Positions 48,760 to 63,112 of a DNA stretch of 64,000 nucleotides are shown piece by piece. Within the stretch, counting starts at the first letter, position 1, and every line of letters starts with the position of its first letter. The notes beneath the pieces are model-generated. The model did no database searches and was not told the origin of the DNA. It saw only the letters and a program-made list of their open reading frames with translations. The stretch comes from an uncultured Dehalococcoidales bacterium (lineage in GTDB: Bacteria > Chloroflexota > Dehalococcoidia > E44-bin15): the NCBI GenBank assembly GCA_964649185.1, contig CAZYOO010000001.1:34465-98464 (forward strand). The letters are read 5' to 3'. A program made the position numbers and the translations under genes.

Positions 48760-50007
48760 ATGGGCAGGCGCAGCGATACCGTTTCACTTGATACATTAGG
48801 ATGCAAGCTTAATAAGGCGGAGAGCGATTCCCTTGGCAGGAGTCTCGCCGATATTGGATACGAGCTGGTGACGCCGGATGATAACCCCGGCGTTTATATT
48901 TTGAACACCTGCACTGTCACCCACGTTGCCGACCGCAAGTCCCGCCATCTGTTGAGGCTGGCATGCAGGAGGAATCCCAACTGTCTCATCGTGGCCACCG
49001 GCTGCTATGCAGAGCGAGCGCCTCAAGAGCTGGAACGGATGCCGGAGGTCGATCTTGTAATCGGCAATGGCGATAAGGCGCGCCTGCCGGACATGTTGAA
49101 GCAGCAAATGCAAGGGGACGGACCGGGGGCTCGACACCCCCGCCTGCGGCGCACCCGCAGCTTCATCGAGGTGCAGCAGGGCTGCAATCAGTTTTGCTCT
49201 TACTGCATCGTCCCTTACGTCCGGGGCAGGGAGTGCAGCCGTGAAGCCGATGAGGTGGTGAACGACGTCAGGCGGTCAGCAGACGAGGGCTACAGAGAGG
49301 TCGTTCTGACGGGAACGCGAATAGGTTCCTATCGCGGAGGTCTGGGGAGCCTGATCCAGCGCGTACTGGATGAGACCGAAGTGCGGCGGCTGCGGCTCTC
49401 CTCGCTGCAGGCCCCAGAGATAACACCCGATTTGCTCGGCCTGTGGCAGGACAGCCGGCTCTGTCGGCACTTTCACATCCCTCTGCAGAGCGGTAGCGAC
49501 ACGGTGCTGCAACGCATGGGGCGCAGATACACCGCCGCCGACTACCGGCTTGCTGTATGCCAGATAAGAGAGCGGATACCGGATGTAGCGATCACCACCG
49601 ACATAATGGTTGGCTTCCCCGGAGAAACCCCCGAGGAGTTCGCTGAGAGCTACCGGTTCTGTGACCAAACGGCCTTCGCCGGCATACATGTGTTCCAGTA
49701 CTCTGCCAGGCCGGGCACCCGTGCAGCGCATATGGGCGTCACGATAGCTGATAATATCAGGAAGGAGCGCAGCGAGGCGATGCTCCGGCTGGCAAAAATA
49801 ACCTCGTACAATTTCAGGAGCCGTTATATCAGTCGCTATATCGATGTGCTGTGGGAGCAGAGGTCCAGCGGCGGCCTGTGGTCGGGCCTGACCGATAATT
49901 ATATCAAGGCAATAACCCAAAGCGACGAGCACCTGGCGAACAGGTGCCTGCCGGCGAAGGTCTCAGCATGCAGCGCGGATTATGTCACCGCCGAGCTTGT
50001 CTTGTAG
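48760..50007 (+). CDS. mtaB: Radical-SAM methylthiotransferase, MiaB/RimO family (MtaB-like)
   Basis: An N-terminal MTTase domain (VSLDTLGCKLNKAESD), a radical SAM CNQFCSYCIVP motif, and a C-terminal TRAM domain. Confidence 0.75.
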   Translation: MGRRSDTVSLDTLGCKLNKAESDSLGRSLADIGYELVTPDDNPGVYILNTCTVTHVADRKSRHLLRLACRRNPNCLIVATGCYAERAPQELERMPEVDLVIGNGDKARLPDMLKQQMQGDGPGARHPRLRRTRSFIEVQQGCNQFCSYCIVPYVRGRECSREADEVVNDVRRSADEGYREVVLTGTRIGSYRGGLGSLIQRVLDETEVRRLRLSSLQAPEITPDLLGLWQDSRLCRHFHIPLQSGSDTVLQRMGRRYTAADYRLAVCQIRERIPDVAITTDIMVGFPGETPEEFAESYRFCDQTAFAGIHVFQYSARPGTRAAHMGVTIADNIRKERSEAMLRLAKITSYNFRSRYISRYIDVLWEQRSSGGLWSGLTDNYIKAITQSDEHLANRCLPAKVSACSADYVTAELVL

Positions 50008-50055
50008 CCTGACGCCGACCTGTGGGATGGATGTAACCGATTTCGAGCGATCACA

Positions 50056-51300
50056 ATGCTGCAGAAGGTTTCCCTGGCCACCAAAGACATCAGGAAATAC
50101 CGCGGCCTCATCGGCGACGAGCTAATCGATGAGGTAGAGGTACTTGCCCGCGATCTGGAAGGTATAAGGATATGCCACATCAACTCGACGCCTTTCGGCG
50201 GGGGTGTGGCCGAGCTGCTTTTCTCCTACATCCCGCTTATCCGCAGCCTGGGGCTACAGGCCGACTGGCAGATCATCCGCGGCGACCAGCGATTCTTCAC
50301 TATAACCAAGTCCCTTCACAATGCCCTGCAGGGTGCCGAATACCCGTTGCTGGAACAGCAGACCAGGAGGATATTCCTGGCCAACAACCAGAAGAACGCC
50401 CGTGAACTGGACCGCAATTACGATGTCTTCGTGATCAACGACCCGCACCCTGCAGCGCTGCGGCACTTCTGCGATGGGGGCAGTGCCAAGTGGATCTGGC
50501 GTTGCCATATAGACAGCTCCGAGCCTGATGAGGAGACCTGGCAATTTTTGCGCCCCCACATCGAAGAGCACGACGCCGCCATCTTCACCATGGACAAATT
50601 CGTGCCCCACGACCTGAAAGTGCCGAAGATCGCAATAATGCCCCCCTGCATCGATGCCTTAAGCACCAAGAATATGCTGCTGCCGAAAAAAGAGGTGTGC
50701 TCCACCATGGTGGAAAATGCTGGACTGGATCCAGATAGGCCTCTTATTATTCAGGTCTCAAGGTTCGACCGCTGGAAAGACCCGTTCGGTGTAATCGAGG
50801 TCTACAAATTGGCTCGGGAGAGTGTGCCGGGGCTGCAACTGGCGCTGGTAGGATCACTGGCGCATGACGACCCCGAGGGATGGGAGCTTTATGCCGCCAT
50901 CAATAAGGAGGCGGAGAAATATGCCGATATCCAGGTCTTCAGCAATCTCAACGGCATCGGCAATATGGAGGTGAACGCTTTTCAGAGGGCAGCGGATATC
51001 GTGATCCAGAAATCCATAAAGGAAGGTTTCGGGCTGGTGGTCGCCGAAGCGTTGTGGAAGGGCACACCGGTGGTCGCCGGCAACGTGGGGGGCATCCCCA
51101 TGCAGATGGCCGGTATCCTTAGCAACTTCCTGGTGGATACCATAGAGGAATGTGCCGAGAAGGTGGTCTACCTTCTCGAAAACCCGGCCAGCGCCAAAGA
51201 AATCGGTGCGGCCGGCACCGCACACATCAAGGCCAATTTCCTTATGCCTCGTTTGATTAAGGAAGAGCTCTCCCTCATCAAGACGCTGCTTCGAGATTAG
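50056..51300 (+). CDS. treT: GT4-family glycosyltransferase, archaeal-type trehalose synthase TreT-like
   Basis: 414 aa; …RICHINSTPFGGGVAELLFSYIPLIRSLGL… resembles TreT. It has a C-terminal GT1/GT4 core. Confidence 0.5.
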   Translation: MLQKVSLATKDIRKYRGLIGDELIDEVEVLARDLEGIRICHINSTPFGGGVAELLFSYIPLIRSLGLQADWQIIRGDQRFFTITKSLHNALQGAEYPLLEQQTRRIFLANNQKNARELDRNYDVFVINDPHPAALRHFCDGGSAKWIWRCHIDSSEPDEETWQFLRPHIEEHDAAIFTMDKFVPHDLKVPKIAIMPPCIDALSTKNMLLPKKEVCSTMVENAGLDPDRPLIIQVSRFDRWKDPFGVIEVYKLARESVPGLQLALVGSLAHDDPEGWELYAAINKEAEKYADIQVFSNLNGIGNMEVNAFQRAADIVIQKSIKEGFGLVVAEALWKGTPVVAGNVGGIPMQMAGILSNFLVDTIEECAEKVVYLLENPASAKEIGAAGTAHIKANFLMPRLIKEELSLIKTLLRD

Positions 51301-51305
51301 CCTAG

Positions 51306-51335
51306 TTGACATCGTAACTTAAAAAACAGTATCTT
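51306..51335 (+). promoter_or_regulatory. Promoter TTGACA-N18-TATCTT plus an AGGAG RBS for HMGCS-like/thiolase module 1
   Basis: TTGACAtcgtaacttaaaaaacagTATCTT …aaggaaAGGAGtttagATG. Confidence 0.5.
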
Positions 51336-51367
51336 AAATCGGGTATCCGATAAGGAAAGGAGTTTAG

Positions 51368-52807
51368 ATGGTAGGAATCACAGCATACGGAGCATATATA
51401 CCGTGGCATCGTATCAACCGCATGACTATCTACATGTCGATCGGATTCGTCAATCCCGCAGCCATCATGCCGGGCGAGAAGGCGGTGGCCAACTATGATG
51501 AGGACAGTCTCACCATGGCGGTAAATGCGGGGATGGACTGCTTGCAAGGCATGGACCGCAGCAAGATCGACGGTATTTTCATGGCCACAGCCACGGGGCC
51601 ATTCGAGGAGCGGCAAAACGCCGGTATAATATCGACCGCCCTCGACCTCAAGCCTGAATCTAGGACAGCGGATTTTACCGCCTCGGTGAAGTCGGGGACC
51701 ACGGCACTGCTCTCTGCCTGCGACGCGGCAAAGGCCGGGAGCGCCAAAGGCATACTGGTATGTGCGTCGGACTGCCGGCTCGGCCCCGCAGGTAGCTACC
51801 AGGAGGAGATGTACGGCGACGGCGCAGCCGCGCTGCTCATCGGCAAGAACAACGTTATCGCCGAACTGGTAGGCAGCTACTCTATCAGCTACGATTTCAT
51901 CGACCACTGGAGGCTCGATACCGAGCGATTCAACCGCACCGGGGAGGACCGCTTCACCCGCGATGAGGGTTTCAGTAAGTTCATCCCCGAGGCGATATCG
52001 GGACTGATGCAGAAATGCAAGATCGGGCCCGAGGACGTATCCAAGGTGTGCTACCCCTGCATGTACGTGCGGCCTCACGCCAAGATGGGCAGCCAGATGG
52101 GATTCAAGCCCGAGCAGATACAGGACCACATGTTCACCACGGTGGGGTTCACCGGGTCGGCAAACCCCCTGATGATCCTGGTGGCGGCGCTGGAGGATGC
52201 CAAACCGGGCGATAAGATAATAGTCGCCAGCCACGGCAACGGCAGCGATGCCCTGCTGTTCGAGGTCACGTCCGAGATCGAGAAGTTGGCCCCCAGAAAA
52301 GGCATTAAGAAGCACATGGTCCACAGGAAGGACCTCACCAGCTACGATCGGATGGTCACCTTCAACAACGTGCTCACCACGGATGTAGCCGGCCGCGGCG
52401 AGGAGGTCTTCCGCACCTCTACAACCATACTGTGGCGGGACCGCAAAAAGCTCATCGGCCTCATCGGGACCAAATGCAAGAAGTGCAAGACCCCCCAATG
52501 GCCGCCGCAGCGGATATGCATCAATCCCAAATGCGGGGCTATCGATCAGATGGAGGAATACCGCTTCTCCGACAAGCAGGCGCGGCTGTTCACCTATACC
52601 GGGGACATGCTGGCCTACAGCCCAACGCCGCCGGAGCTCTACGGGATGATCGACTTCGAAGGCGGCGGGCGGGCGATATTCAATCTGACCGATTGCGACC
52701 AGGACGAACTTTCAGTCAACATGCTGCTGGAGATGACCTTCCGCAAGCGGTGGGAGTCCCCCGGCTTCGTGGGATATGGCTGGAAGGGAACCCCGGTGCA
52801 GCAGTAA
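51368..52807 (+). CDS. Fusion protein: archaeal-type HMG-CoA-synthase-like condensing enzyme domain plus a C-terminal DUF35 zinc-ribbon/OB-fold domain (paralogue 1)
   Basis: N-terminus MVGITAYGAYIPWHRI…MYGDGAAALLIG…; C-terminus KCKKCKTPQWPPQRICINPKCGA…IDFEGGGRAIF…. Confidence 0.7.
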   Translation: MVGITAYGAYIPWHRINRMTIYMSIGFVNPAAIMPGEKAVANYDEDSLTMAVNAGMDCLQGMDRSKIDGIFMATATGPFEERQNAGIISTALDLKPESRTADFTASVKSGTTALLSACDAAKAGSAKGILVCASDCRLGPAGSYQEEMYGDGAAALLIGKNNVIAELVGSYSISYDFIDHWRLDTERFNRTGEDRFTRDEGFSKFIPEAISGLMQKCKIGPEDVSKVCYPCMYVRPHAKMGSQMGFKPEQIQDHMFTTVGFTGSANPLMILVAALEDAKPGDKIIVASHGNGSDALLFEVTSEIEKLAPRKGIKKHMVHRKDLTSYDRMVTFNNVLTTDVAGRGEEVFRTSTTILWRDRKKLIGLIGTKCKKCKTPQWPPQRICINPKCGAIDQMEEYRFSDKQARLFTYTGDMLAYSPTPPELYGMIDFEGGGRAIFNLTDCDQDELSVNMLLEMTFRKRWESPGFVGYGWKGTPVQQ

Positions 52808-52822
52808 CGAAGGAGATGGACG

Positions 52823-54004
52823 ATGGTAGAAGGCATAAAAGATAAAGTCGCAGTAATCGGAATGGGATGCACCCGGTTCGGTGAGCTGTGGGACATGAGC
52901 GGCCCAGATCTGATGGTCGATGCCTATAAAGAATGCATGGAGGATGCCGGTATCGAGAAGAAGGACATCGACGCAGCATGGTGGTCCGCCCTCTACCCGA
53001 TGCAGGGGCTGAGCGCCATCCAGCTATCTCAGACGCTGAAGCTGCCCTATATACCGGTAACGCATGTGGAGAACCTTTGCGCCAGCGCCACCGAGGCCAT
53101 GCGTGGTGCTGCATACGCCCTGGCATCCAGATGCTGCGATGTAGCGTTGTGTATCGGCGTTGAGAAGCTGAAGGATGTGGGCTACGGGGGTCTCCCCGAC
53201 CTGAGGCCGCCACAGGAGCAGTACTGGGCCGCCAACGCATCCGGCCCCGGCACTTACGCCATGATGGCTACACGCTACTTCTCACGGTACGGGCTCTCCC
53301 CTGAGGAGGGCAAGCGGATGATAGCCAGGGCCACATGGAAGAGCCACCAGAACGGCGCCAAGCACCCCAAGGCCCATCTGAGGAAGGCAGTAGACCTGGA
53401 TGCGATCATAAACGCCCCCATAATCGCCTGGCCGCTGGGGCTGTTCGATTGCTGCGGCGTGTCCGATGGTGCTGCCGCCGCCATCATGGTACGCGCCGAG
53501 GACGCTAAGAAGTACCGCAAGGATCCGGTGTACGTCAAGTCCCTGCAGATTGCGGCCGCCTCCGGCGAGGACATGTGGTACACCGATTACGATTATACCC
53601 ACGCCGAAACCGGCTTCCGCGCCGGTCAGCGCGCTTACGCCGAGGCAGGCATCAAGAACCCGCGTGAGGAGCTGAGCATCGCCGAGGTTCACGATTGCTT
53701 CTCTATCACCGAAGCGGTCACCATGGAAGACCTCCAGTTCAGCCCGCGCGGCAAAGTGCGAGCGGATATCGAGTCCGGATTCTTCGACCTCGACGGCAAG
53801 CTCCCGGTGAACTCCGACGGCGGCCTCAAATGCTTCGGCCACCCGGTGGGTGCCTCCGGCCTGCGCATGGCGTATGAGGTGTACAAGCAGATGCAGGGCA
53901 AATGCGGCGAGCGGCAGCTCAAGAACCCCAAGCTGGGACTGACCCACAATATGGGCGGCTATCCCCCGTGGAGCATTGTCGGGGTCGCCATAATGGGACT
54001 CTAA
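52823..54004 (+). CDS. Thiolase (SCP-x/archaeal-type acetyl-CoA C-acyltransferase-like), paralogue 1
   Basis: 393 aa with VENLCASATEAM (Cys nucleophile), …EVHDCFSITE… and GHPVGASGLRM. Confidence 0.8.
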   Translation: MVEGIKDKVAVIGMGCTRFGELWDMSGPDLMVDAYKECMEDAGIEKKDIDAAWWSALYPMQGLSAIQLSQTLKLPYIPVTHVENLCASATEAMRGAAYALASRCCDVALCIGVEKLKDVGYGGLPDLRPPQEQYWAANASGPGTYAMMATRYFSRYGLSPEEGKRMIARATWKSHQNGAKHPKAHLRKAVDLDAIINAPIIAWPLGLFDCCGVSDGAAAAIMVRAEDAKKYRKDPVYVKSLQIAAASGEDMWYTDYDYTHAETGFRAGQRAYAEAGIKNPREELSIAEVHDCFSITEAVTMEDLQFSPRGKVRADIESGFFDLDGKLPVNSDGGLKCFGHPVGASGLRMAYEVYKQMQGKCGERQLKNPKLGLTHNMGGYPPWSIVGVAIMGL

Positions 54005-54013
54005 ACTGACGAT

Positions 54014-54045
54014 CGAGGGCCCGTTGACCTGTTGACGGGCCCTCG
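54014..54045 (+). terminator. Perfect 10-bp GC-rich hairpin (CGAGGGCCCG…CGGGCCCTCG, 12-nt loop) immediately after thiolase 1; no U-tract
   Basis: Seen directly. Confidence 0.35.
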
Positions 54046-54067
54046 TCATATCCAAGGATGGCTCTAT

Positions 54068-54619
54068 ATGGAACGCACCATCGGCAGGACCAGGTTAGCC
54101 CTTGTTCAAGGAGACATCACCATGCAGGATACCGATGCCATCGTCAATGCGGCCAACTCCAGCCTCATGGGTGGTGGTGGTGTTGACGGGGCAATCCACC
54201 GTGCCGGTGGTCCGGCTATATTGGAGGAGTGCAAGCGAATCGTAGAGCGGCAGGGGCGTCTGCCCACCGGCGAGGCGGTGATAACGACCGGCGGTAATAT
54301 GCAGGCCAGGCACGTTATCCACACTGTGGGGCCGGTGTGGCACGGAGGCCAAAAGGGCGAGCCTAAGCTACTGGCGAAAGCTTATCGCCACAGCCTAGAA
54401 GCGGCGATCGCCAATAACTTAAAAAGCGTCTCCTTCCCATCGATAAGCACCGGCGTTTACGGGTATCCGGTGGAGCTCGCTGCCGGAGTGGCGCTGGGGA
54501 CGGTCATCGATTTCCTGCGCCGAAACGATTCACTTGATGAGGTCTTCTTCGTCCTTTTCGACGACAGGACATATAACGCTTACGCACAAGCTCTTGAATC
54601 GCTGGTTCCCGATGACTGA
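54068..54619 (+). CDS. Macro-domain protein (O-acetyl-ADP-ribose deacetylase, YmdB-like)
   Basis: LALVQGDITMQDTDAIVNAANSSLMGGGGVDGAIHRAGG… The ATG at 54068 is preferred over the upstream TTG. Confidence 0.8.
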   Translation: MERTIGRTRLALVQGDITMQDTDAIVNAANSSLMGGGGVDGAIHRAGGPAILEECKRIVERQGRLPTGEAVITTGGNMQARHVIHTVGPVWHGGQKGEPKLLAKAYRHSLEAAIANNLKSVSFPSISTGVYGYPVELAAGVALGTVIDFLRRNDSLDEVFFVLFDDRTYNAYAQALESLVPDD

Positions 54620-54687
54620 TCATCATCCGCTCTCGGACCGGACATCTTGTATCGGTTATTTACAGGTGCTACAATCAAACGTAAAAG

Positions 54688-54760
<73 letters not shown>

Positions 54761-54867
54761 CTTTCACTCGTAGAGGGGCAAATGATGGGGGAACCCTCCC
54801 GTCTACCTTCAAGATCCCATCCCAAGATAGGCGACCGGTTACTGCCCGTTTATAAGGATTCACCCCC

Positions 54868-55635
54868 CTATTTCGGCGGCATGCGGATGGCGCCGTCGAG
54901 CCGTATCGTCTCGCCGTTGAGGAAGGAGTTCTCGACTATCTGCTGTGCCAGCATGGCGTACTCGTCGGGATTGCCGAAGCGCTTGGGGAACGGTATCTGC
55001 GCCGCCAGCGCATCGTTCATCTCTTTCGGCATCATGCCGGTGAGCGGGGTGGCGAAGGGGCCGGGAACGATGGTGCAGCACCTTATGCCCACCCGCGACA
55101 TGTCCCTGGCGATGGATAACGTCATGCCCACTACCCCGGCCTTGGATGCGCAGTATGCCACCTGTCCTATCTGCGGGTCGGTGGCAGCGATGGAGGCGGT
55201 GTTGACGATGACACCCCTCTCACCGTCCTCATTGGGCTCGTTGCTCTGCATATGAAATGCGGCCCAGCGGCAGACGTCGAAGGTGCCGATGAGGTTAATA
55301 TTCACTATCTTGATGAACATGTTCAGGTCGTGCGGCCCTTCCTTGCCGGCGATCTTGCCGACCCAGCCCGTTCCGGCGCAGTGCATCAGGATATGCACGT
55401 TCTTGAATTCCTGGAGCGCGCGTTTGAATCCCGCTTCCACCTGGTCGGGGCTGGTGATGTCCATTTGCACGAATATCGCCCTCGAGCCGAGCTCTTTAAC
55501 CATGGCCTCACCTGTGTCATTGTTCATGTCGGCGACAACGATGTTGGCTCCCATGACGTGAAGCCGCTTGACGGTGGCGGCACCCAGCCCGCTGGCGCCT
55601 CCGGTTACGAATGCGGTTTTGCCCTTGATCTGCAT
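54868..55635 (-). CDS. SDR-family 3-hydroxyacyl-CoA dehydrogenase type-2 (HSD17B10-like)
   Basis: 255 aa; TGGASGLGAA…NTASIAA…YCASKAGVVGMT…PFPKRFGNPDEYA…ENSFLNGETIRLDGAIRM is strikingly similar to type-2 HADH / 17β-HSD10. Confidence 0.75.
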   Translation of the reverse strand: MQIKGKTAFVTGGASGLGAATVKRLHVMGANIVVADMNNDTGEAMVKELGSRAIFVQMDITSPDQVEAGFKRALQEFKNVHILMHCAGTGWVGKIAGKEGPHDLNMFIKIVNINLIGTFDVCRWAAFHMQSNEPNEDGERGVIVNTASIAATDPQIGQVAYCASKAGVVGMTLSIARDMSRVGIRCCTIVPGPFATPLTGMMPKEMNDALAAQIPFPKRFGNPDEYAMLAQQIVENSFLNGETIRLDGAIRMPPK

Positions 55636-55783
55636 TGTCCCTCCCTTGTTATGTCGCTTGGTTGCGATTTGGACTGAAAGTCTATTCAGAGTTTACAATA
55701 TCCCAGGGATGGAAGCAAAGAGACAGCGCCGTCAAACTGACACAACGAGCTGGACAGCAGCCCAACGGTTCTATTTAACTTGC

Positions 55784-57427
55784 CTATTTCGCTGGCTGTC
55801 CTGCCGCATGACGTCCGGCACGCCGCCCGGCGAACACCCCGTCCGAGATGGATGTGCCGCTGGCGAAATAGACGTTGGAACAGAGCCCTATGGCATTGCG
55901 CCCCGCAGCGTACAGCCCCTCGATCGAGGAGCCGTCCGCCCGCTTGACCTCCCCGGTCTCTTCATTCACCAACAGCCCCCCCAGCGTGAGGGCCGCGGTG
56001 GGGATGCCACCCTTGGTCAATGTCGCGGAGAACCCCTGCAGGGAGCAGTCCAGCCCGTAGAACGGGGGCGTGATCTGCGGCACGAAGCGCTGCTGCATCT
56101 TGCCCAGCGGATCTGGCTCGCCCTTGGCGGCGGCCTCGTTGTACTGCTTCATGGTGGCTTCCAGCCCTTCGGGTGAGATGCCGAACTTCCGTGCCAGCTT
56201 GGCAATCGATGGGGCTTTCTTGCGGCTGATCATCAGCATGGGTATCATGGTCAGCTTCTGGAAGAAGGCGCACTGATCGAACAGATGGCTCTTGGCCTCC
56301 TTGTAGGTATTGCTGTCGAATACCAGGTAGGCGTTTCCTCCGCCGTCGTACACGATGTAATCGCCCTGCTTGCCGCCGTACAGGTCCTCGCTGCATATGC
56401 GCTTACCGTCCCTGTTAACCAGCACGCCCTGCATCAGCGCTTCCGGCGGTACGTAGAAGCGCCACGCCGACATCTTGTCCATGTTGGCGGCGACGCCTCC
56501 CACGCTCTCCCCCAGCGCGATGCCCGACCCGTCGTCGGCATAGGTGCCCAGGGGTAGGCACCGACAGAAGACGCTGTTGCACTCACCGACCCTCTTCTTA
56601 TTGAAGATGAAGCCGCCGGCGGCCAGTATGACGCCCTTGCGGGCCCGCGCGCGGTAGGGACGGGAGCGCACCTTCATCATGCCGAGGGCCAGCATATTGA
56701 GCAGGCTGGCCAGCGGGGGGAAATAGGTATTGAGCTTGGCGTTTATCCAGGTGATGCCGCCGTGGAACCGTCGGAGCAGTATGGCGCTGGGGGGCATGGA
56801 GCGCCCCTCCACCCCTATCACCCACCCGTCTTCATCCTGGACCAGCTTGAGCACGTTCGTCTGGCAGCGTATCTGGACGTTATCATAGCGGCGCAGAGCT
56901 TTCTCCATGCCGTGGAACAGGGTGAGGCCAGAAAGGCCTTTGCCCCTGGCGCGGTGGCCGCGCGGAGCGGGCTTGGCCTTGGCCTTGTTATGGGCGTTAT
57001 TCTCGCTGCCGGAGTAGTACAGGAAATACTTATCGATGGGGTAGGAGGTCTTGAACGGGCATAGCGCCCCTTCGAAGGGGACGCCGGCGTCGGCCAGCCA
57101 CTGGAGATCGTTCTTCGACTGCTCGCAGAAACGGCGCAGCGTCTCGTCGGTCATGACGCCGTCGCCGACCTCCTGCTTCAGGTAGTTGTACATATCGTCC
57201 ACCGTGTCCTCGACCCCTGCCGCCTGCTGGTATGGCGTTCCGCCGCCGGAGTAGAGGATGCCGCCGCTGGCGGCGGTGGCGCCGCCGCCGTGGAAGCGGT
57301 CCAGAACCAGCACCGAGGCCCCCTGCTGGGCAGCCTCCAGCGCGGCGCACGCGCCCGCCCCTCCGAAGCCTACTACGATAACATCTGCTTCAGCATCCCA
57401 TCGCTGGTCTCTTTTGTTAGCTGTCAT
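55784..57427 (-). CDS. FAD-dependent dehydrogenase of the FAD_binding_2 family (3-ketosteroid Δ1-dehydrogenase / fumarate-reductase-flavoprotein-like)
   Basis: 547 aa. The N-terminus DVIVVGFGGAGACAALEAAQQGASVLVLDR carries the dinucleotide fold, and the C-terminus reads GLYAAGRN…SGTSISDGVFAGRRAG. Confidence 0.65.
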   Translation of the reverse strand: MTANKRDQRWDAEADVIVVGFGGAGACAALEAAQQGASVLVLDRFHGGGATAASGGILYSGGGTPYQQAAGVEDTVDDMYNYLKQEVGDGVMTDETLRRFCEQSKNDLQWLADAGVPFEGALCPFKTSYPIDKYFLYYSGSENNAHNKAKAKPAPRGHRARGKGLSGLTLFHGMEKALRRYDNVQIRCQTNVLKLVQDEDGWVIGVEGRSMPPSAILLRRFHGGITWINAKLNTYFPPLASLLNMLALGMMKVRSRPYRARARKGVILAAGGFIFNKKRVGECNSVFCRCLPLGTYADDGSGIALGESVGGVAANMDKMSAWRFYVPPEALMQGVLVNRDGKRICSEDLYGGKQGDYIVYDGGGNAYLVFDSNTYKEAKSHLFDQCAFFQKLTMIPMLMISRKKAPSIAKLARKFGISPEGLEATMKQYNEAAAKGEPDPLGKMQQRFVPQITPPFYGLDCSLQGFSATLTKGGIPTAALTLGGLLVNEETGEVKRADGSSIEGLYAAGRNAIGLCSNVYFASGTSISDGVFAGRRAGRHAAGQPAK

Positions 57428-57458
57428 CCAATCCTCCTGTGCGGCGCACTAGAGAAAA

Positions 57459-57487
57459 AGTTTATTCTATCAGTCAGTGTGTGTCAA
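57459..57487 (-). promoter_or_regulatory. Promoter TTGACA-N17-TAAACT plus an AGGAGG RBS for the FAD-dehydrogenase/SDR genes
   Basis: Minus strand cgaacTTGACAcacactgactgatagaaTAAACT…cacAGGAGGattggATG. Confidence 0.45.
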
Positions 57488-57620
57488 GTTCGAAGGTCGC
57501 AACAATTTAGAGTGGGTGCCCGCGCATGACCTGAGAGGTGGCTCACATGATTGCACCCGTCGCCCATATTTCGATGGAGCGCTGCACGCAAGCCAGATCC
57601 GGTAAAAGGCATATCTATCC

Positions 57621-57650
57621 TTGACAGCACACTGGGGTACGTGATATATT
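57621..57650 (+). promoter_or_regulatory. Orphan consensus promoter TTGACA-N17-(A)TATAT(T) about 410 nt upstream of HMGCS-like gene 2
   Basis: ccTTGACAgcacactggggtacgtgATATATttc. Confidence 0.45.
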
Positions 57651-57999
57651 TCACAATAGATTTACTCTTGTCCTGCCGTCGGAGTAGCATGGACAACGTC
57701 TATCGAACAGATAGCTTGAGTGGCTGGGATGGCTTCCGGCCATTTCTTCGCACGAAACTGGTGGCAAGATGACATTCACCCTTGAAGGGATAAGGATATA
57801 CGGCCCTGCCAGCCTCCACCCTATCGATTTTCATTCCGCGATGTCCAATGGCCCCTGTGCAAATATTCCGAGCTCTACAGATTTAACCACAGATGCCGCA
57901 TCGCGCCTTGTACGATACTTTCATTCCTTTTCAATTCAGCCTACGGAATTGCCTCCCCGACGGGGATAGTTTAAGGGGGATTATCGGAGGAAGCGTTGA

Positions 58000-58028
58000 T
58001 TGACAAGCGAAATAAACTGACGTATCTT
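58000..58028 (+). promoter_or_regulatory. Promoter TTGACA-N17-TATCTT plus an AGGAGG RBS for module 2; same architecture as module 1
   Basis: TTGACAagcgaaataaactgacgTATCTT…AGGAGGgttgtATG. Confidence 0.5.
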
Positions 58029-58061
58029 GAATACTTGGGAATAAATCAATAGGAGGGTTGT

Positions 58062-59513
58062 ATGGTTGGAATAACCTCTTACGGAGCTTATGTACCATAT
58101 CATCGCGTGATAAGGGAAGATTCCTACAAGGCCTGGGGCGGGTTCCCTATCCCCGGCGAGAAGGCCATATGCAGTTACGATGAGGATGCGGTAACGATGG
58201 CCTGGGACGCAGCCACGGACTGTCTCGCTGGCGGTGACCCCAAGAAGCTGGGGGGCTTATACTTGGCGACCACCTGCTCACCGTACATCGAGAAGCAGTG
58301 TGCCGCGATCGTAGCAGCCGCTCTAGACATGGGTGACAATATCCGTACCGCCGATTTCACCAATTCGCTGCGTTGCGGCACCACCGCTTTGATCTCAGCC
58401 GTAGATGCGGTGAGGGCAGGCACGGCCAATAACCTGATGGTCGCCGCCGCCGATTGCCGCATGGGGGCGCCGGCGGGCATGGGAGAGGCGATGTACGGCG
58501 ACGGCGCCGCCGCCCTGCTCATCGGCGACAAGAATGTCATCGCTGAGGTGGTTGACAGCTACTCCGTCTGCGACGAGTACAGCGGAGAGTGGCGTGCTCA
58601 TAACGACTACTTCGTGCGCGCCTGGGAAGACCGTCACATGCTCGATGAGGGATACTCTGAACAGCTCCCGAAGGCGATAAACGGATTGATGAAGAAGTGC
58701 AAGCTTGAGGCCAAGGACTTCGCCAAGCTGGTGCTAAGCTCTCCCATGGATGTCCGCCGACATGGAAAGGTGGCGGTGGGCGCAGGCTTCGGCCTGGAGC
58801 AGATCCAGGAGCCATTCTTCATGACCATCGGCACCTGCGGCGCGGCGATGGGCATGATGATGCTGGTGGCTGCCCTTGAGGATGCCAATCCGGGCGATAA
58901 GATACTGCTGGCTCAGTACGGCAACGGTGCGGACGCTTTCCTCATCCAGGTGACGGATGAGATAAAAAAGAAGAAGACGAAGGCTCATCGCGGGATTAAG
59001 AGTAATGTGAACTCCAAGCGCATCCTGCCCTATAACACCTATCTGCGCTGGCGGGGGCTGGTCACAGTGGAGCGGGCACGTAGGCCGGAGATACCGTTCG
59101 CGTCACTGGCGGCGTTAAAGCGCAGCCGCAAGGAAGTGCTGGCGCTGTACGGCAAGAAATGCCTGAGCTGCGGTAACGTCCAGTATCAGATGCCTTTCGG
59201 CATCGGCGGCATGACCCCCATCAGGGTATGCTACTATTGCCAGACCAAGGACAACTTCGAGGATTACCGCTTCGCAGACAAGAAGGCTACAGTTTTCACA
59301 TACTCACTGGACCTGCTGTCTGACGTTATCGACCCGCCGGGCACACCGGTGTTCATCGACTTCGAAGGCGGTGGCCGGGGGTGGTTCGACATGACTGACC
59401 GCGACCCGGACCAGGTGCAAGTAGGCATGCCGGTGGAGATGGTATTCAGGAAGATGTTCTTCGACCGGGGCATACACAATTATTATTGGAAAGCAAGGCC
59501 GGTGCGGGCCTAA
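58062..59513 (+). CDS. HMG-CoA-synthase-like::DUF35 fusion protein, paralogue 2
   Basis: MVGITSYGAYVPYHRV…ADFTNSLRCGTTAL…; C-terminus KKCLSCGNVQYQ…RVCYYCQTKD…IDFEGGGRGWF. Confidence 0.7.
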   Translation: MVGITSYGAYVPYHRVIREDSYKAWGGFPIPGEKAICSYDEDAVTMAWDAATDCLAGGDPKKLGGLYLATTCSPYIEKQCAAIVAAALDMGDNIRTADFTNSLRCGTTALISAVDAVRAGTANNLMVAAADCRMGAPAGMGEAMYGDGAAALLIGDKNVIAEVVDSYSVCDEYSGEWRAHNDYFVRAWEDRHMLDEGYSEQLPKAINGLMKKCKLEAKDFAKLVLSSPMDVRRHGKVAVGAGFGLEQIQEPFFMTIGTCGAAMGMMMLVAALEDANPGDKILLAQYGNGADAFLIQVTDEIKKKKTKAHRGIKSNVNSKRILPYNTYLRWRGLVTVERARRPEIPFASLAALKRSRKEVLALYGKKCLSCGNVQYQMPFGIGGMTPIRVCYYCQTKDNFEDYRFADKKATVFTYSLDLLSDVIDPPGTPVFIDFEGGGRGWFDMTDRDPDQVQVGMPVEMVFRKMFFDRGIHNYYWKARPVRA

Positions 59514-59527
59514 GAAAGGAGGATGAG

Positions 59528-60709
59528 ATGCCAGAGAGTATCAAGGATAAAGTAGCAATAATCGGCATGGGCTGCACCAAGTTTGGTGAGCTGTGGGATA
59601 AGAGCTCCACCGACCTGATGGTTGATGCGGCATATGAGGCATATGAGGATGCGGGTGTCGAACCCAAGGACATCGATGCTGCCTGGGTCGGCAACTGGCA
59701 GGAGGTATCCGGGATGGCGGGGCTGGGGCTCTCCGGCCTCAGGCTGCAGTACAAACCGATAACCAGGGTGGAGAACATGTGCGCCACCGGCACGGACGCC
59801 ATGCGCAACGCAGCCTACGCCGTCGCCTGCGGCGCGTGCGACATAGCGCTGGCGGTGGGGGCTGAGAAGCTGAAAGATATGGGATATGCCGGCCTGATCT
59901 CCGTATCCCCCGGCGGCACTACCGCAACCGGAGGTATCACTACCACCGCGCCGGCGATCTTCGCCATGATGGCAACGCGGTACTTCTCCCGCTACAATAT
60001 ATCGCCGGACGACGGCAAGAGGATGCTGGCGCGGCTTTCGGTGAAAAGCCATCACAACGGCAACCTCAATCCCAAAGCCCACTTCCATCGTGAGATAACG
60101 GTAGAGCAAGCGTTTAATGCGCCGATCATAGCGTGGCCTCTGGGGCTGTTCGATTGCTGTGGAGTCTCCGACGGGGGGGCGGCGGCCATTGTATGCCGTG
60201 CCGCAGACGCCAAGAAGTTCAGGGATGATCCGGTATTCATTAAATCGGTTCGGATGTGCGTCGGCCCCGCCGAGGGACCGGTGAAGCCGGAGTATGACTT
60301 CACGCATGTAGAGGAGACCTACCGCGCCGGCCTGGCAGCCTACGAAGAGGCAGGTGTAAGGAATCCCCGCGAGGAGATCAGCATGGCGGAGGTGCACGAT
60401 TGCTTCTCCATCACCGAGGCTACTATCATGGAGGACCTGCAGTTCAGCCCACGCGGTAAAGTGAAAGAGGACATCGAATCCGGTTTCTTCGACCTGGATG
60501 GCGGGTTACCGGTTCAGCCTGACGGGGGATTGAAGTGCTTCGGTCATCCCGTAGGGGCGACCGGGCTGCGCATGATATACGAGATGTACAAGCAGCTCCA
60601 GGGGAAGGCCGGCCCTCGCCAGCTGAAGGACATCAATTACGGGCTGACACACAACCAGGGGGCCATGCCGCCGGCCTGCACCATCGCCGTTTGTATCGTA
60701 GGGCGGTAG
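59528..60709 (+). CDS. Thiolase (SCP-x/archaeal-type), paralogue 2
   Basis: MPESIKDKVAIIGMGC…VENMCATGTDAM…GHPVGATGLRM. ATG 59528 has an AAGGAGG RBS. Confidence 0.8.
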   Translation: MPESIKDKVAIIGMGCTKFGELWDKSSTDLMVDAAYEAYEDAGVEPKDIDAAWVGNWQEVSGMAGLGLSGLRLQYKPITRVENMCATGTDAMRNAAYAVACGACDIALAVGAEKLKDMGYAGLISVSPGGTTATGGITTTAPAIFAMMATRYFSRYNISPDDGKRMLARLSVKSHHNGNLNPKAHFHREITVEQAFNAPIIAWPLGLFDCCGVSDGGAAAIVCRAADAKKFRDDPVFIKSVRMCVGPAEGPVKPEYDFTHVEETYRAGLAAYEEAGVRNPREEISMAEVHDCFSITEATIMEDLQFSPRGKVKEDIESGFFDLDGGLPVQPDGGLKCFGHPVGATGLRMIYEMYKQLQGKAGPRQLKDINYGLTHNQGAMPPACTIAVCIVGR

Positions 60710-60730
60710 TCACAGCGGATATAACACCAA

Positions 60731-60773
60731 GCGAAGCGGCAGCCCTAACCGTTAAGGGGTTGGCCGCTTCGCC
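60731..60773 (+). terminator. 10-bp perfect-stem hairpin (GCGAAGCGGC…GCCGCTTCGC, 23-nt loop) after thiolase 2, followed by CGTTTATA
   Basis: Seen directly. Confidence 0.4.
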
Positions 60774-60931
60774 GTTTATAAGTCGACCTGGTGCTAGCGT
60801 TTGAGGTTACTCCAGGCAGCTTGCGCTAGTAGGTTGCCACTGACGATAGCCTGTGAGTGAACCTGTTCGATTAAGGAAATTCCGTCACGCGGCAATGCGC
60901 TAACTTATGCGGTTCCACCTTAAATAAATTG

Positions 60932-60971
60932 CCCCTGCCTCCAGATGGTTCCGCAACTGAACGAGCAGGGG
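60932..60971 (-). terminator. Terminator hairpin (CCCCTGC…GCAGGGG) followed by AATTTATTTAA on the minus strand, downstream of tRNA-Ala
   Basis: Seen directly. Confidence 0.4.
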
Positions 60972-60990
60972 TTCTTTCTATTGTCAACTA

Positions 60991-61066
60991 TGGTGGAGCT
61001 GGAGGGATTCGAACCCTCTACCTTTTGACTGCCAGTCAAACGCTCTCCCGATTGAGCTACAGCCCC
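60991..61066 (-). tRNA. tRNA-Ala (anticodon GGC)
   Basis: The reverse complement is a 76 nt cloverleaf GGGGCTG-TA-GCTC… with a G3:U70 identity pair, anticodon loop CTGGCAG, T-arm GAGGG-TTCGAAT-CCCTC, and an encoded CCA. Confidence 0.9.
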
Positions 61067-61154
61067 AGGTCGCATAAAGTTTAGCACAGCACCACGTGGA
61101 AATTCAAGACGGCCAGCGCATCCGGCACCGAGAAGCGCCGGCGAAGCTGGCAGC

Positions 61155-61183
61155 TTGACTTCAGCTACCTGCTTTGCTAGAAT
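61155..61183 (+). promoter_or_regulatory. Promoter TTGACT-N17-TAGAAT for tRNA-Val
   Basis: TTGACTtcagctacctgctttgcTAGAAT, about 20 nt upstream of the mature 5' end. Confidence 0.5.
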
Positions 61184-61203
61184 TAGCTATTGTGCTATCA
61201 GTG

Positions 61204-61280
61204 GGGCGATTAGCTCAGTTGGTAAGAGTGCTGCGTTGACATCGCAGAGGTCACTGGTTCAAATCCAGTATCGCCCACCA
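61204..61280 (+). tRNA. tRNA-Val (anticodon GAC)
   Basis: A 77 nt cloverleaf GGGCGAT-TA-GCTC…; anticodon loop TTGACAT; T-arm ACTGG-TTCAAAT-CCAGT; CCA encoded. Confidence 0.9.
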
Positions 61281-61314
61281 TGTTCCCGGTCCAGTGAAAC
61301 TGGTGACGCCTCTC

Positions 61315-61344
61315 GCCCCTCTCGGGTTCGAGGGGCTATTGCTT
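61315..61344 (+). terminator. Terminator hairpin GCCCCTC-tcgggttc-GAGGGGC followed by TATTGCTT, after tRNA-Val
   Basis: Seen directly. Confidence 0.45.
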
Positions 61345-61363
61345 AAGCAAAAGGTTAAACGAT

Positions 61364-63112
61364 ATGGCGGGTAAGTTAGAGGAAAGCGAGTATATAGAGC
61401 GCGTCAGGCACTCCACATCGCACGTTATGGCAGAGGCGGTGCTGGACATGTTCCCCGACGCCAAGTTCGGCATCGGCCCGGTGATCGAGAACGGTTTCTA
61501 TTACGACTTCGACCTGCCGCGTGCACTGACGCCGGAGGATCTGCCAGCCATCGAGTCAGCAATGCGCGAGATCATCGATCGTGATACGCCCTTCACGCAT
61601 ACCGAGCTGGATAAGGCGGAGGCCAGGCGGCTTTTCTCCGACCAGCCATACAAGCTCGAGCTAATCGATGAGATACCCGAGGATAAGGTGCACATCTACC
61701 AGCAGGGGGCATTCACCGATCTCTGTCGCGGGCCCCACGTAAGCTCTACCGGCGAGATAAAAGCGTTCAAGCTGATCAATGCGGCAGGCGCGTACTGGCG
61801 CGGCGACGAGAGGCGCCCCATGCTTCAGCGAATCTATGGCGTCGCTTTCGATACTGCCGAGGAACTGGAAGAACACCTGCACCGGCTCGAGGAGGCGGCC
61901 AAGCGCGATCACCGCCGCTTGGGACAGGATCTGGAGCTGTTCAGTTTCCACGAGGATGTGGGGGCGGGTTTGGTCCACTGGCATCCCCACGGCGGACGGA
62001 TACGGGTGCTTATCGAGGACTACTGGCGCCAGATGCATTACGAAGGCGGGTACGAGATCGTGTTCACGCCCCACATCGGGAGGTCAAACCTGTGGCAGAC
62101 CTCGGGGCACTTCGATTTCTACAGGGACAGCATGTACTCGCCGATGGATATCGACGGGCAGGATTATTACATCAAGCCGATGAACTGCCCGTTCCACATC
62201 ATGATATACAAATCCAAGTTGCGCTCCTACAGGGATCTGCCCCTGCGCTGGGCCGAGCTGGGAACCGTATACCGCTACGAGCGTAGCGGCACCCTGCACG
62301 GGCTGATGCGGGTTCGCGGTTTCACCCAGGACGACGCCCACATCTTCTGCACACCGGAGCAGATCGAGGGGGAGATCCTGCGCGTGCTGGATTTCAGCCT
62401 GAACATGCTCAGGGGCTTCGGGTTCGAGGATTTTAAGATTGAGCTCAGCGTCCGCGACCCCCGGAACCCGGGCAAGTATGCCGGCAGCGATTCAATGTGG
62501 CAGCAGGCCGAGAACTCGCTGATACAAGCGCTGGAATCACGCGACCTGCCGTACGAGCGTATAGAGGGGGAAGCGGTATTCTACGGCCCCAAGATCGACA
62601 TCAAGATCACCGATGCGCTGGGTCGCTCCTGGCAGTGCTCCACAATTCAGTTCGACTTCAACCTGCCTCAGCGGTTCGATATGACATTTGTCAGCGAGGA
62701 CGGCAAGGAGCACCGCCCGTACATGGTGCACCGTGCGCTGCTGGGCAGCATAGAGCGTTTCATCGGCTGCCTCATCGAGCATTACGCCGGGGCGTTCCCG
62801 GTATGGCTGGCTCCGGTCCAGGCTGTAGTCATACCGATATCCGACAGGCACATGGAATACGCGTCAAAGGTGGGAGCTGGATTGAAGGCCGCCGGCATGC
62901 GCATCGAGGTGGACTCCAGGCCTGAAAGGATGAACCTTAAGATCCGCCAGGCCCAGTTACAGAAGATTCCCTACATGCTGATCGTTGGCGATAAGGAAAC
63001 AGAGAGCGGCGGGATATCGGTCCGGCTCAGGAGCGGCGAAGATCTTGGGGGCCAGAGCACCGATGATTTTATCGAGATGGCCCAGAAAGCCATCGCCGCC
63101 AAAACGCCTTGA
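61364..63112 (+). CDS. thrS: Threonine--tRNA ligase lacking the N-terminal TGS domain
   Basis: 582 aa. It starts in the editing (N2) domain (…HSTSHVMAEAVLDMFPDAKFGIGPVIENGFYYDFDL…), with class II motifs and a C-terminal anticodon-binding domain. Confidence 0.9.
   Translation: MAGKLEESEYIERVRHSTSHVMAEAVLDMFPDAKFGIGPVIENGFYYDFDLPRALTPEDLPAIESAMREIIDRDTPFTHTELDKAEARRLFSDQPYKLELIDEIPEDKVHIYQQGAFTDLCRGPHVSSTGEIKAFKLINAAGAYWRGDERRPMLQRIYGVAFDTAEELEEHLHRLEEAAKRDHRRLGQDLELFSFHEDVGAGLVHWHPHGGRIRVLIEDYWRQMHYEGGYEIVFTPHIGRSNLWQTSGHFDFYRDSMYSPMDIDGQDYYIKPMNCPFHIMIYKSKLRSYRDLPLRWAELGTVYRYERSGTLHGLMRVRGFTQDDAHIFCTPEQIEGEILRVLDFSLNMLRGFGFEDFKIELSVRDPRNPGKYAGSDSMWQQAENSLIQALESRDLPYERIEGEAVFYGPKIDIKITDALGRSWQCSTIQFDFNLPQRFDMTFVSEDGKEHRPYMVHRALLGSIERFIGCLIEHYAGAFPVWLAPVQAVVIPISDRHMEYASKVGAGLKAAGMRIEVDSRPERMNLKIRQAQLQKIPYMLIVGDKETESGGISVRLRSGEDLGGQSTDDFIEMAQKAIAAKTP

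Follow-up and report, generated by a model that had tools for sequence, protein, structure and literature searches.

Related systems

Thiolases that operate with a DUF35 protein and with a subunit of the hydroxymethylglutaryl-coenzyme A (HMG-CoA) synthase (HMGS) fold are known from the archaeal HMGS/acetoacetyl-CoA thiolase (ACAT)/DUF35 complex and from the bacterial PhlACB (PpATase, 5M3K/5MG5) and MucABC (SmaATase, 9VBO/9VBT) complexes. Here we describe two paralogous gene pairs of this kind, fusA-thiA (module A, 51368-54004) and fusB-thiB (module B, 58062-60709), from an uncultured Dehalococcoidales bacterium (assembly GCA_964649185.1). Positions are those of the window, the whole 64-kb stretch of contig CAZYOO010000001.1 that was analysed. 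In each pair the first gene encodes an HMGS-like domain covalently fused to a DUF35 domain, and the second encodes a thiolase. A preliminary description made from the sequence had placed both pairs, together with a dehydrogenase and a flavoprotein encoded between them, in a candidate undescribed catabolic cassette.

The closest described system is a fused complex from Pseudomonas fluorescens. Liao et al. (Nat Commun 2026; PMC12960953) mined 1,030 bacterial HMGS/ACAT/DUF35 clusters, 1,001 of which were without secondary-metabolism genes. The fused P. fluorescens complex (PfACAT/HMGS-DUF35) produced neither HMG-CoA nor acetoacetyl-CoA from acetyl-CoA; it cleaved acetoacetyl-CoA thiolytically, and the histidine of the HDxF motif was essential (PMC12960953). 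In the archaeal complex, replacement of the catalytic HMGS tetrad abolished HMG-CoA formation, and the interface chamber that holds CoA in this complex is retained in the bacterial complexes that have been solved (PMC12960953). PhlACB and MucABC, which are without HDxF, are Friedel-Crafts acyltransferases with no thiolytic activity, while the P. fluorescens type was viewed as an evolutionary intermediate without a pathway (PMC12960953). In archaea, pairs of thiolase (KT) and DUF35 protein have been proposed to serve fatty-acid synthesis, and several such pairs in one genome are common (bioRxiv 10.1101/2024.07.05.601840). A literature search for the fusion in Dehalococcoidia or other anaerobes returned nothing besides PMC12960953.

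DUF35 partners are also found in two systems of other build. In the benzoylsuccinyl-CoA thiolase BbsAB (7PXP), a sterol carrier protein 2 (SCP2)-like thiolase with an HDxF motif is paired with a DUF35 zinc-ribbon/OB-fold protein, without which it does not carry out the reversible thiolysis that it contributes to a beta-oxidation-like pathway of anaerobes. In the steroid side-chain aldolases Ltp2-ChsH2(DUF35) and Sal-Shy, a thiolase-fold subunit is held by a DUF35 domain that is joined to a MaoC hydratase, and its thiolase residues are repurposed for retro-aldol cleavage.

The HMGS-like::DUF35 fusion

The two fusion genes lie on the plus strand (fusA, 51368..52807, 479 residues; fusB, 58062..59513, 483 residues) and their products are 46% identical. 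In FusA, the HMGS-like domain spans approximately residues 1-317 and is followed by a disordered linker (318-349) and by the DUF35 zinc ribbon and OB fold (approximately 350-479). Searches of Pfam and NCBIfam showed that the N-terminal domain has a thiolase fold and aligns over its full length with archaeal HMGS models, and that the C-terminus consists of zf-ChsH2 and OB_ChsH2_C (DUF35); the C-terminus of FusA matched the archaeal DUF35 subunit 6esq_E at 1.5e-12. The Pfam check suggested in the preliminary description recovered these folds, along with Thiolase_N/Thiolase_C_1, adh_short and FAD_binding_2 in the other genes of the region. The zinc ribbon had been described as CxxC...CxxC. Its four ligand cysteines (C370, C373, C384 and C389) are indeed invariant, although the second pair in FusA is C-x4-C and not CxxC.

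Several lines of evidence separate the N-terminal domain from genuine HMGS. Scores against the HMGS equivalog models are below the cut-offs, both for NF003274 (216.6 bits for FusA and 216.7 for FusB, against 244) and for TIGR00748 (155 and 165 bits, against 353). The top match among solved structures is PhlA (9skh, E 5.9e-40; also 2.8e-37), followed by archaeal HMGS (6esq_I, 2.1e-28) and then MucA (9vbo_A, 1.2e-25). An AlphaFold2 model of the FusA monomer (pLDDT 74, pTM 0.79) found the same relatives, with a Foldseek search of the PDB placing PhlA, archaeal HMGS and MucA, the HMGS-like subunits of three solved tripartite complexes, in all of the top ten ranks. When the sequences were aligned with 6esq_I and PhlA using MAFFT, the catalytic tetrad E82/C114/H238/N270 of 6esq_I corresponded to A/V/P/F in FusA and to T/L/S/T in FusB. 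This loss extends throughout the family: in an alignment of 40 sequences, none has glutamate at the first position or cysteine at the second, while the third is proline in 39 and histidine in no member. The HMGS-like domains are predicted from these residues to be catalytically dead in both copies and family-wide. The preliminary description had taken this part of the protein for a condensing enzyme; because the tetrad is lost, the HMGS scores fall below cut-off and the nearest structures are those of PhlA, HMGS and MucA, the fusion is better regarded as a putative pseudo-enzyme scaffold.

The partner thiolases

The thiolase genes thiA (52823..54004) and thiB (59528..60709), both on the plus strand, encode paralogous proteins of 393 residues with 61% identity. 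Both match Thiolase_N and Thiolase_C_1 and pass NCBIfam NF004810 with 577 (ThiA) and 559 (ThiB) bits against a cut-off of 403. The nearest structure is 6esq_A (1e-54), the acetoacetyl-CoA thiolase from the archaeal tripartite complex, followed by SCP2 thiolases of the HDCF type (about 1e-40), BbsB (3e-35) and, far weaker, PhlC (2e-17). The early assignment to the SCP-x/archaeal type is well supported by the NF004810 and 6esq_A matches. Cys86, H290-D-C-F293 and G339-H-P are invariant in all 58 partner thiolases compared (those of the window and of related loci), so the catalytic set is complete in both window copies. The best explanation of these motifs is that the thiolase is the only catalytic subunit, in which Cys86 would act as the nucleophile and the HDCF loop and the histidine of GHP would complete the active site.

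Comparison with described complexes

The window proteins share with PfACAT/HMGS-DUF35 of P. fluorescens the covalent HMGS-like::DUF35 fusion, the loss of the E-C-H-N tetrad, an adjacent ACAT with the Cys, HDxF and GHx motifs, and surroundings without polyketide synthase (PKS) or nonribosomal peptide synthetase (NRPS) genes. Judged by architecture and motifs, they agree with the P. fluorescens type in every sequence feature by which it is recognised, and by analogy a similar activity, thiolysis with no formation of HMG-CoA, is expected of them. The fusion and thiolase unit is an already known and recently characterised type, represented here by two ancient copies in Dehalococcoidia, and the claim that the fusion was undescribed does not survive the 2026 characterisation of the P. 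fluorescens complex (PMC12960953). The window differs from P. fluorescens in its lineage, in its two ancient paralogous copies and in the genomic contexts of its relatives, which point to beta-oxidation.

The same three folds make up the archaeal complex, and the window thiolases retain HDCF and have 6esq_A as their nearest solved homologue. Unlike the archaeal complex, however, the window proteins have a destroyed HMGS active site and carry DUF35 as a fused domain, not as a separate protein, and the organism carries genes of the methylerythritol phosphate (MEP) pathway; because the active site is destroyed, no channelled synthesis of HMG-CoA would be possible. PhlACB and MucABC are likewise tripartite with an inactive HMGS-like subunit. 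In these, HDxF is lost and the pockets are remodelled, whereas in the window HDCF is intact, DUF35 is fused and similarity to PhlC is weak. There is also no type III PKS or NRPS-PKS cluster around the window modules; no PKS or NRPS genes were found near them, and the only ketosynthase nearby is FabF of type II fatty-acid synthesis (FAS-II). BbsAB resembles the window in pairing an HDxF SCP2-like thiolase with a zinc-ribbon/OB-fold partner. In contrast to the window fusion, BbsA is a free DUF35 protein with no HMGS-like domain; the window has no bbs genes, and its thiolases score 120 and 147 bits against the BbsB model NF053628, below the cut-off of 750. Unlike the Ltp2 and Sal partners, the window protein carries DUF35 on a dead HMGS fold, and its thiolase keeps the full Cys/HDCF/GHP set.

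Distribution and age of the two modules

The fusion had been thought unusual, but it proved to be widespread. At E <= 1e-10 there are more than 5,474 homologues, which is a lower bound, mostly unnamed or labelled 'HMG-CoA synthase', including proteins from metagenome-assembled genomes (MAGs) of Chloroflexi/Dehalococcoidia and from Candidatus Methanoliparum and Methanolliviera. Relatives occur in at least 572 species-representative genomes, mostly of anaerobes; carriers include Dehalococcoidia, Desulfobacterales, Syntrophales/Smithella, Desulfatiglandaceae, Bacillota, Nitrospirae and Ca. Methanoliparum. Gene neighbourhoods were counted over the 80 best fusion loci, and the share with beta-oxidation neighbours over the 49 that extend to at least 10 kb. 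A thiolase homologue (53-81% identity) follows the fusion gene, in the same orientation, at almost all loci where the sequence extends far enough. Fusion and thiolase are the only conserved pair, and the pairing is obligate. The comparison of neighbourhoods called for at the outset showed this pairing to be widespread, while linkage to the dehydrogenase and flavoprotein of the window was not conserved.

The duplication, likewise described as unusual, is ancient and recurs in Dehalococcoidia. Two-module arrays lie side by side in two further dehalococcoidial loci (L013 and L038), where each of the two copies is more similar to the matching window module; the A/B duplication is therefore old. 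Single Dehalococcoidia MAGs can also hold two or more separate fusion and thiolase loci (L010/L024 in CAYHAX01; L020/L021 in DAOUMT01). Several paralogous complexes per genome thus seem to be common, as for the archaeal thiolase/DUF35 pairs, and the paralogues A and B probably differ in substrate range.

The main value of these observations is corrective, since the genes are routinely annotated as 'HMG-CoA synthase' and 'acetyl-CoA acetyltransferase'. Automated pathway calls could count tetrad-less fusions as mevalonate enzymes and so mislead metagenome reconstructions, and uncultured anaerobes, among them lineages that degrade hydrocarbons and fatty acids, very commonly carry members of the family. 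Tetrad-less fusions that are publicly named 'hydroxymethylglutaryl-CoA synthase' comprise the window copies and P0005, P0021, P0107, P0117 and P0118, among them proteins from Ca. Methanoliparum and Methanolliviera MAGs.

Beta-oxidation context in relatives

Clustering and Pfam searches across the 80 loci identified as recurrent neighbours acyl-CoA dehydrogenase (21), family III CoA-transferase (18), short-chain dehydrogenases/reductases (SDRs; 14), acyl-CoA ligase (13), TetR regulators (12), crotonase (11), hydratase-2/MaoC (8 and 4) and 3-hydroxyacyl-CoA dehydrogenase (HADH; 6). At least one neighbour of beta-oxidation type is present in 30 of the 49 long loci, and 21 have two or more types. 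Acyl-CoA dehydrogenase is found in 21 of these long loci, family III CoA-transferase in 15, acyl-CoA ligase in 10 and crotonase in 9, and hydratase-2/MaoC or HADH is also represented.

Domain fusions link the scaffold with three steps of beta-oxidation, those of hydratase, dehydrogenase and thiolase. In about 24 of the 80 loci (Desulfobacterales, Syntrophales, Anaerolineales and Thermoflexales), the fusion protein is extended to 800-990 residues by SDR and SCP2 domains behind DUF35. In about 16 loci the fusion stands directly behind a protein of about 700 residues composed of hydratase-2, SDR and SCP2 domains, the domain set of multifunctional enzyme type 2 (MFE-2), and is followed by the thiolase and then, often, by an acyl-CoA dehydrogenase. 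The extended form is exemplified by L052:10001-12745 (about 910 residues), with an MFE-2-like gene upstream (L052:7872-10004), and is also seen in L053, L055, L063, L064, L067-L070, L072, L074, L076-L078 and L080-L082. A literature search for this architecture, an MFE-2-like protein with an SDR/SCP2-extended fusion, turned up no description. With hydratase-2, SDR and SCP2 domains either joined to the module or encoded beside it, the Desulfobacterales relatives resemble the peroxisomal-type system of MFE-2 and SCPx/SCP2-thiolase; the window modules, which are without these domains, share with that system the HDCF-type thiolase. We know of no pseudo-HMGS/DUF35 partner in the eukaryotic peroxisomal system. 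Taken together, the beta-oxidation neighbours and the SDR/SCP2 fusions beside MFE-2-like proteins suggest that the complex serves beta-oxidation as a thiolase holoenzyme and is not an intermediate devoid of function.

An expanded module of another kind is seen in three Chloroflexota loci (L022:1971-5361, L025:4839-8063 and L029:12019-14796), in which three genes are inserted between fusion and thiolase. These encode a protein of 173-185 residues without a Pfam match, a CrtI/amine-oxidase-type FAD oxidoreductase of about 525 residues and an SDR, with CoA-transferase subunits coming next; the flavoprotein is other than that of the window.

Proposed function

It is likely that the window encodes two independent pseudo-HMGS::DUF35-thiolase complexes that cleave 3-oxoacyl-CoAs in beta-oxidation-like metabolism. 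The two independently transcribed copies of this widespread two-gene unit would each specify a thiolase complex of the ACAT/HMGS-DUF35 type. From its homology to subunits of the archaeal, PhlACB and MucABC complexes, whose structures are solved, the pseudo-HMGS::DUF35 protein would clamp the thiolase dimer and supply an interface chamber for the CoA moiety. The complex would cleave 3-oxoacyl-CoA thiolytically as the last step of a beta-oxidation-like pathway, with no HMG-CoA being made, and the neighbouring HSD17B10-like dehydrogenase could deliver the 3-oxoacyl-CoA. The pathway is suggested because acyl-CoA dehydrogenase, CoA-transferase and hydratase genes are neighbours of the fusion elsewhere and because SDR and SCP2 domains are fused to it in Desulfobacterales. 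Thiolytic (retro-Claisen) cleavage in a pathway of this type, which the preliminary description had also favoured, is still the most likely chemistry.

A number of observations weigh against this interpretation. Nineteen of the 49 long loci have no recognisable beta-oxidation neighbours. Acyl-CoA dehydrogenase, hydratase, ligase, CoA-transferase and other beta-oxidation genes were looked for in the 64-kb window and none was found, and the modules here are embedded among housekeeping genes. The thiolase reaction is reversible and could run in either direction in vivo. The AlphaFold2 model of FusA is of moderate confidence and represents the monomer. Finally, the dead domain retains a set of invariant charged residues (D44-E45-D46, D102, D135, R137, E146, R182, R190, E193, R195, D199, K216 and H237), which suggests a conserved binding or other function that goes beyond scaffolding.

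The region between the modules

Between the modules, on the minus strand, lie an SDR gene (54868..55635; Pfam adh_short) and a gene for a 547-residue flavoprotein (55784..57427; FAD_binding_2). The SDR aligns over its full length with solved type-II HADHs (4xgn, 3.5e-80; human HSD17B10, 1u7t, 1.4e-76), whereas other SDR classes match at about 1e-32 or weaker. Its designation as a homologue of the HSD17B10-like type-II enzymes is thus borne out, and from its sequence it could plausibly feed 3-oxoacyl-CoA to a thiolase. The flavoprotein passes NCBIfam NF005511, a family of uncharacterised 'FAD-binding protein' (652 bits against a cut-off of 466). Its nearest structure is 3-ketosteroid delta4-(5alpha)-dehydrogenase (4at0, 7e-67), in keeping with the earlier label of KstD/fumarate-reductase-like, though its scores against the KstD equivalogs are far below the cut-offs (123.7 bits against 789, and 112.1 against 788).

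Neither gene is a regular companion of the fusion. An SDR homologue of more than 45% identity is found near the module in two of the 80 fusion loci (L058 and L083), and the flavoprotein, sought in all 80, is near the fusion in none. Eleven contigs with relatives of the flavoprotein (45-91% identity) have no fusion, thiolase or SDR nearby, and a search of them for recurrent neighbours of these relatives found none. The full arrangement of the window is repeated only in same-species contigs (L085 and L086). The synteny from uvrC through TreT, fusA, thiA and a macro-domain gene to tRNA-Arg is kept in L006 and L007, and among the 80 loci macro and TreT genes are near the fusion only in the two closest relatives. 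Beyond tRNA-Arg(tct) (54688..54761, plus strand), the window continues with the SDR, the flavoprotein and module B, L007 with an integrase-like gene (L007:13419-14644) and L006 with an OYE-like (old yellow enzyme) oxidoreductase (L006:5583-7857). This break in synteny suggests an integration or rearrangement hotspot. A recent island at the tRNA gene was considered and dismissed, as the window has neither a second copy of the tRNA 3' end or other att-like repeat, nor an anomaly of GC content or skew, nor an integrase. The segment from SDR to module B is a variable region without a demonstrable mobile element. Because the arrangement occurs in same-species contigs only and the genes after tRNA-Arg differ in L006 and L007, the six-gene 'cassette' is a lineage-specific juxtaposition and not a conserved unit.

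Alternative interpretations

The cassette of the preliminary description, in which the modules, the SDR and the flavoprotein together would act on a branched or steroid-like acyl-CoA through desaturation, dehydrogenation and retro-Claisen cleavage, appears improbable as a single dedicated system. In its favour, the genes lie near one another, and module B shares a divergent intergenic region of 634 bp with the FAD-SDR pair. The SDR is close to the 3-hydroxy-2-methylbutyryl-CoA/steroid dehydrogenase HSD17B10, the nearest solved relative of the flavoprotein is a 3-ketosteroid dehydrogenase, and SCP2-type thiolases usually accept bulky or 2-methyl substrates. L022, L025 and L029 have another flavoprotein and an SDR between fusion and thiolase, and L058 and L083 have an HSD17B10-like SDR near the module. 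Against this stand the absence of the flavoprotein from all 80 fusion loci, the absence of fusion, thiolase and SDR from the eleven loci of its relatives, the restriction of the arrangement to L085 and L086, and the different genes that follow tRNA-Arg in the nearest syntenic relatives, L006 and L007. In addition, the region has no hydratase, the flavoprotein is far under the KstD cut-offs, and each module has its own promoter and hairpin (see below). We give a similarly small chance to a condensing direction, in which the complexes would catalyse the Claisen step of a CoA-dependent, acyl carrier protein (ACP)-independent elongation or reverse beta-oxidation and the SDR, as a ketoacyl-CoA reductase, would pull the reaction. 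Thiolase chemistry is reversible, an SDR is adjacent, and the modules are surrounded by genes of housekeeping and biosynthesis, fabF and TreT among them. However, HSD17B10-type enzymes are NAD-dependent and (S)-specific, like catabolic enzymes; the neighbours elsewhere are catabolic (acyl-CoA ligase, acyl-CoA dehydrogenase, TetR regulator and CoA-transferase), and FabF in the genome indicates that ACP-dependent fatty-acid synthesis is present. While synthesis of fatty acids by KT/DUF35 pairs has been proposed for the archaeon Sulfolobus (bioRxiv 10.1101/2024.07.05.601840), the P. fluorescens complex did not condense acetyl-CoA, and without an HMGS active site there is no exergonic step of the kind that draws condensation forward in the archaeal complex (PMC12960953).

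It is very unlikely that the complexes are C-acyltransferases of the PhlACB/MucABC type, which in a Friedel-Crafts reaction would acylate a small-molecule acceptor with a group taken from acetyl-CoA or passed between phenolics. The HMGS-like domain is indeed nearer to PhlA (about 1e-40) than to archaeal HMGS (2e-28), and the tetrad is missing as in PhlA and MucA. The thiolases, however, match archaeal ACAT at 1e-54 and PhlC at 2e-17, and no PKS or NRPS genes are nearby. The acyltransferases are without HDxF, which is invariant here as HDCF, and it is the fused P. fluorescens representative that is thiolytic whereas the acyltransferases are not (PMC12960953). The chance that the modules encode a genuine HMGS and acetoacetyl-CoA thiolase feeding the mevalonate pathway is practically negligible, even though the source annotations read 'hydroxymethylglutaryl-CoA synthase' and 'acetyl-CoA C-acetyltransferase' and the fusion aligns over its full length with archaeal HMGS models. 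All four catalytic residues are gone in both copies and throughout the family, their replacement in the archaeal complex abolished HMG-CoA formation (PMC12960953), the HMGS scores are under the cut-offs, and the MEP genes ispD and ispF lie in the same window. That the modules do not serve isoprenoid synthesis had been proposed from the start, and tetrad, scores and MEP genes all agree with it.

Of these explanations we prefer the two independent thiolytic complexes, and a wider version of this proposal can be put forward tentatively, although we regard it as rather unlikely. The complex may serve, as a dedicated thiolase holoenzyme, a beta-oxidation of the MFE-2/SCP2 type that would be widely distributed among anaerobes (Dehalococcoidia, Desulfobacterales, Syntrophales/Smithella and Ca. 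Methanoliparum), and here the paralogues, together with the HSD17B10-like dehydrogenase and possibly the delta4-KSTD-like flavoprotein, might degrade methyl-branched or alicyclic acyl-CoAs derived from hydrocarbons, isoprenoids or steroids. If so, the charged residues that do not vary in the dead domain would point to a conserved role in binding CoA or substrate, and the complex would not be the 'evolutionary intermediate' without a pathway of PMC12960953.

Transcription signals and other features

The module coordinates and open reading frames (ORFs) of the preliminary description, as well as tRNA-Arg, the macro-domain gene and ispD/ispF, are all present as it gave them, and its shared promoter architecture is equally evident. 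The motif TTGACA-N17/18-TATCTT occurs exactly twice in the 64 kb, once before each module, where shuffled sequences lead one to expect none. In a motif search, the site of module A (TTGACA-N18-TATCTT, 51306..51335, plus strand) matches the sigma-70 consensus at 10 of 12 positions; that of module B (TTGACA-N17-TATCTT) is at 58000..58028 on the plus strand. Three other Dehalococcoidia loci (L005, L006 and L007) have the module A motif before their fusA orthologues, in an unchanged position. Within the modules, fusA and thiA are separated by 15 nt with an AAGGAGA ribosome-binding site, and fusB and thiB by 14 nt with AAGGAGG. The start of thiB was placed at ATG 59528, which gives the 393-residue product on record, has the AAGGAGG site and lies 14 nt past the fusB stop; a TTG start at 59486 was dismissed in its favour. 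Right behind thiA is a plus-strand hairpin (54011..54047; -27.2 kcal/mol, z = -5.9, equalled by none of 200 shuffles) that is likely to be the transcript end or a stabiliser of module A, and a second follows thiB (60731..60772, plus strand; -28.9 kcal/mol, z = -4.3, again none of 200). Because a promoter-like site precedes each of them and a hairpin closes each, the modules look like two self-contained bicistronic transcription units. Long antisense ORFs, such as 51302-52498 on the minus strand, were dismissed as artefacts of GC-rich coding sequence.

The flavoprotein gene and fusB are separated by an unusually long intergenic region of 634 bp (57428-58061), which is divergent and common to the FAD-SDR pair and module B. 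An Rfam scan of 50000-61400 (E <= 0.1) returned three tRNAs only, with no riboswitch or leader in this region. The best sigma-70-like match of the region, at 57621-57650 on the plus strand, agrees at 11 of 12 positions and has an extended TG, and the region also contains a 66-residue ORF (57769-57969) with no match to an NCBIfam family.

Among the remaining genes, ispD, ispF and fabF were verified elsewhere in the window. The macro-domain gene (54032..54619, plus strand; Pfam Macro) follows module A, and gene callers prefer a 183-residue start near 54068. Directly 5' of module A is a gene for a TreT-type trehalose synthase (50056-51300; Pfam TreT_GT1), which scores 422 bits against NF041139, under the cut-off of this model, and is syntenic with the module in L006 and L007.

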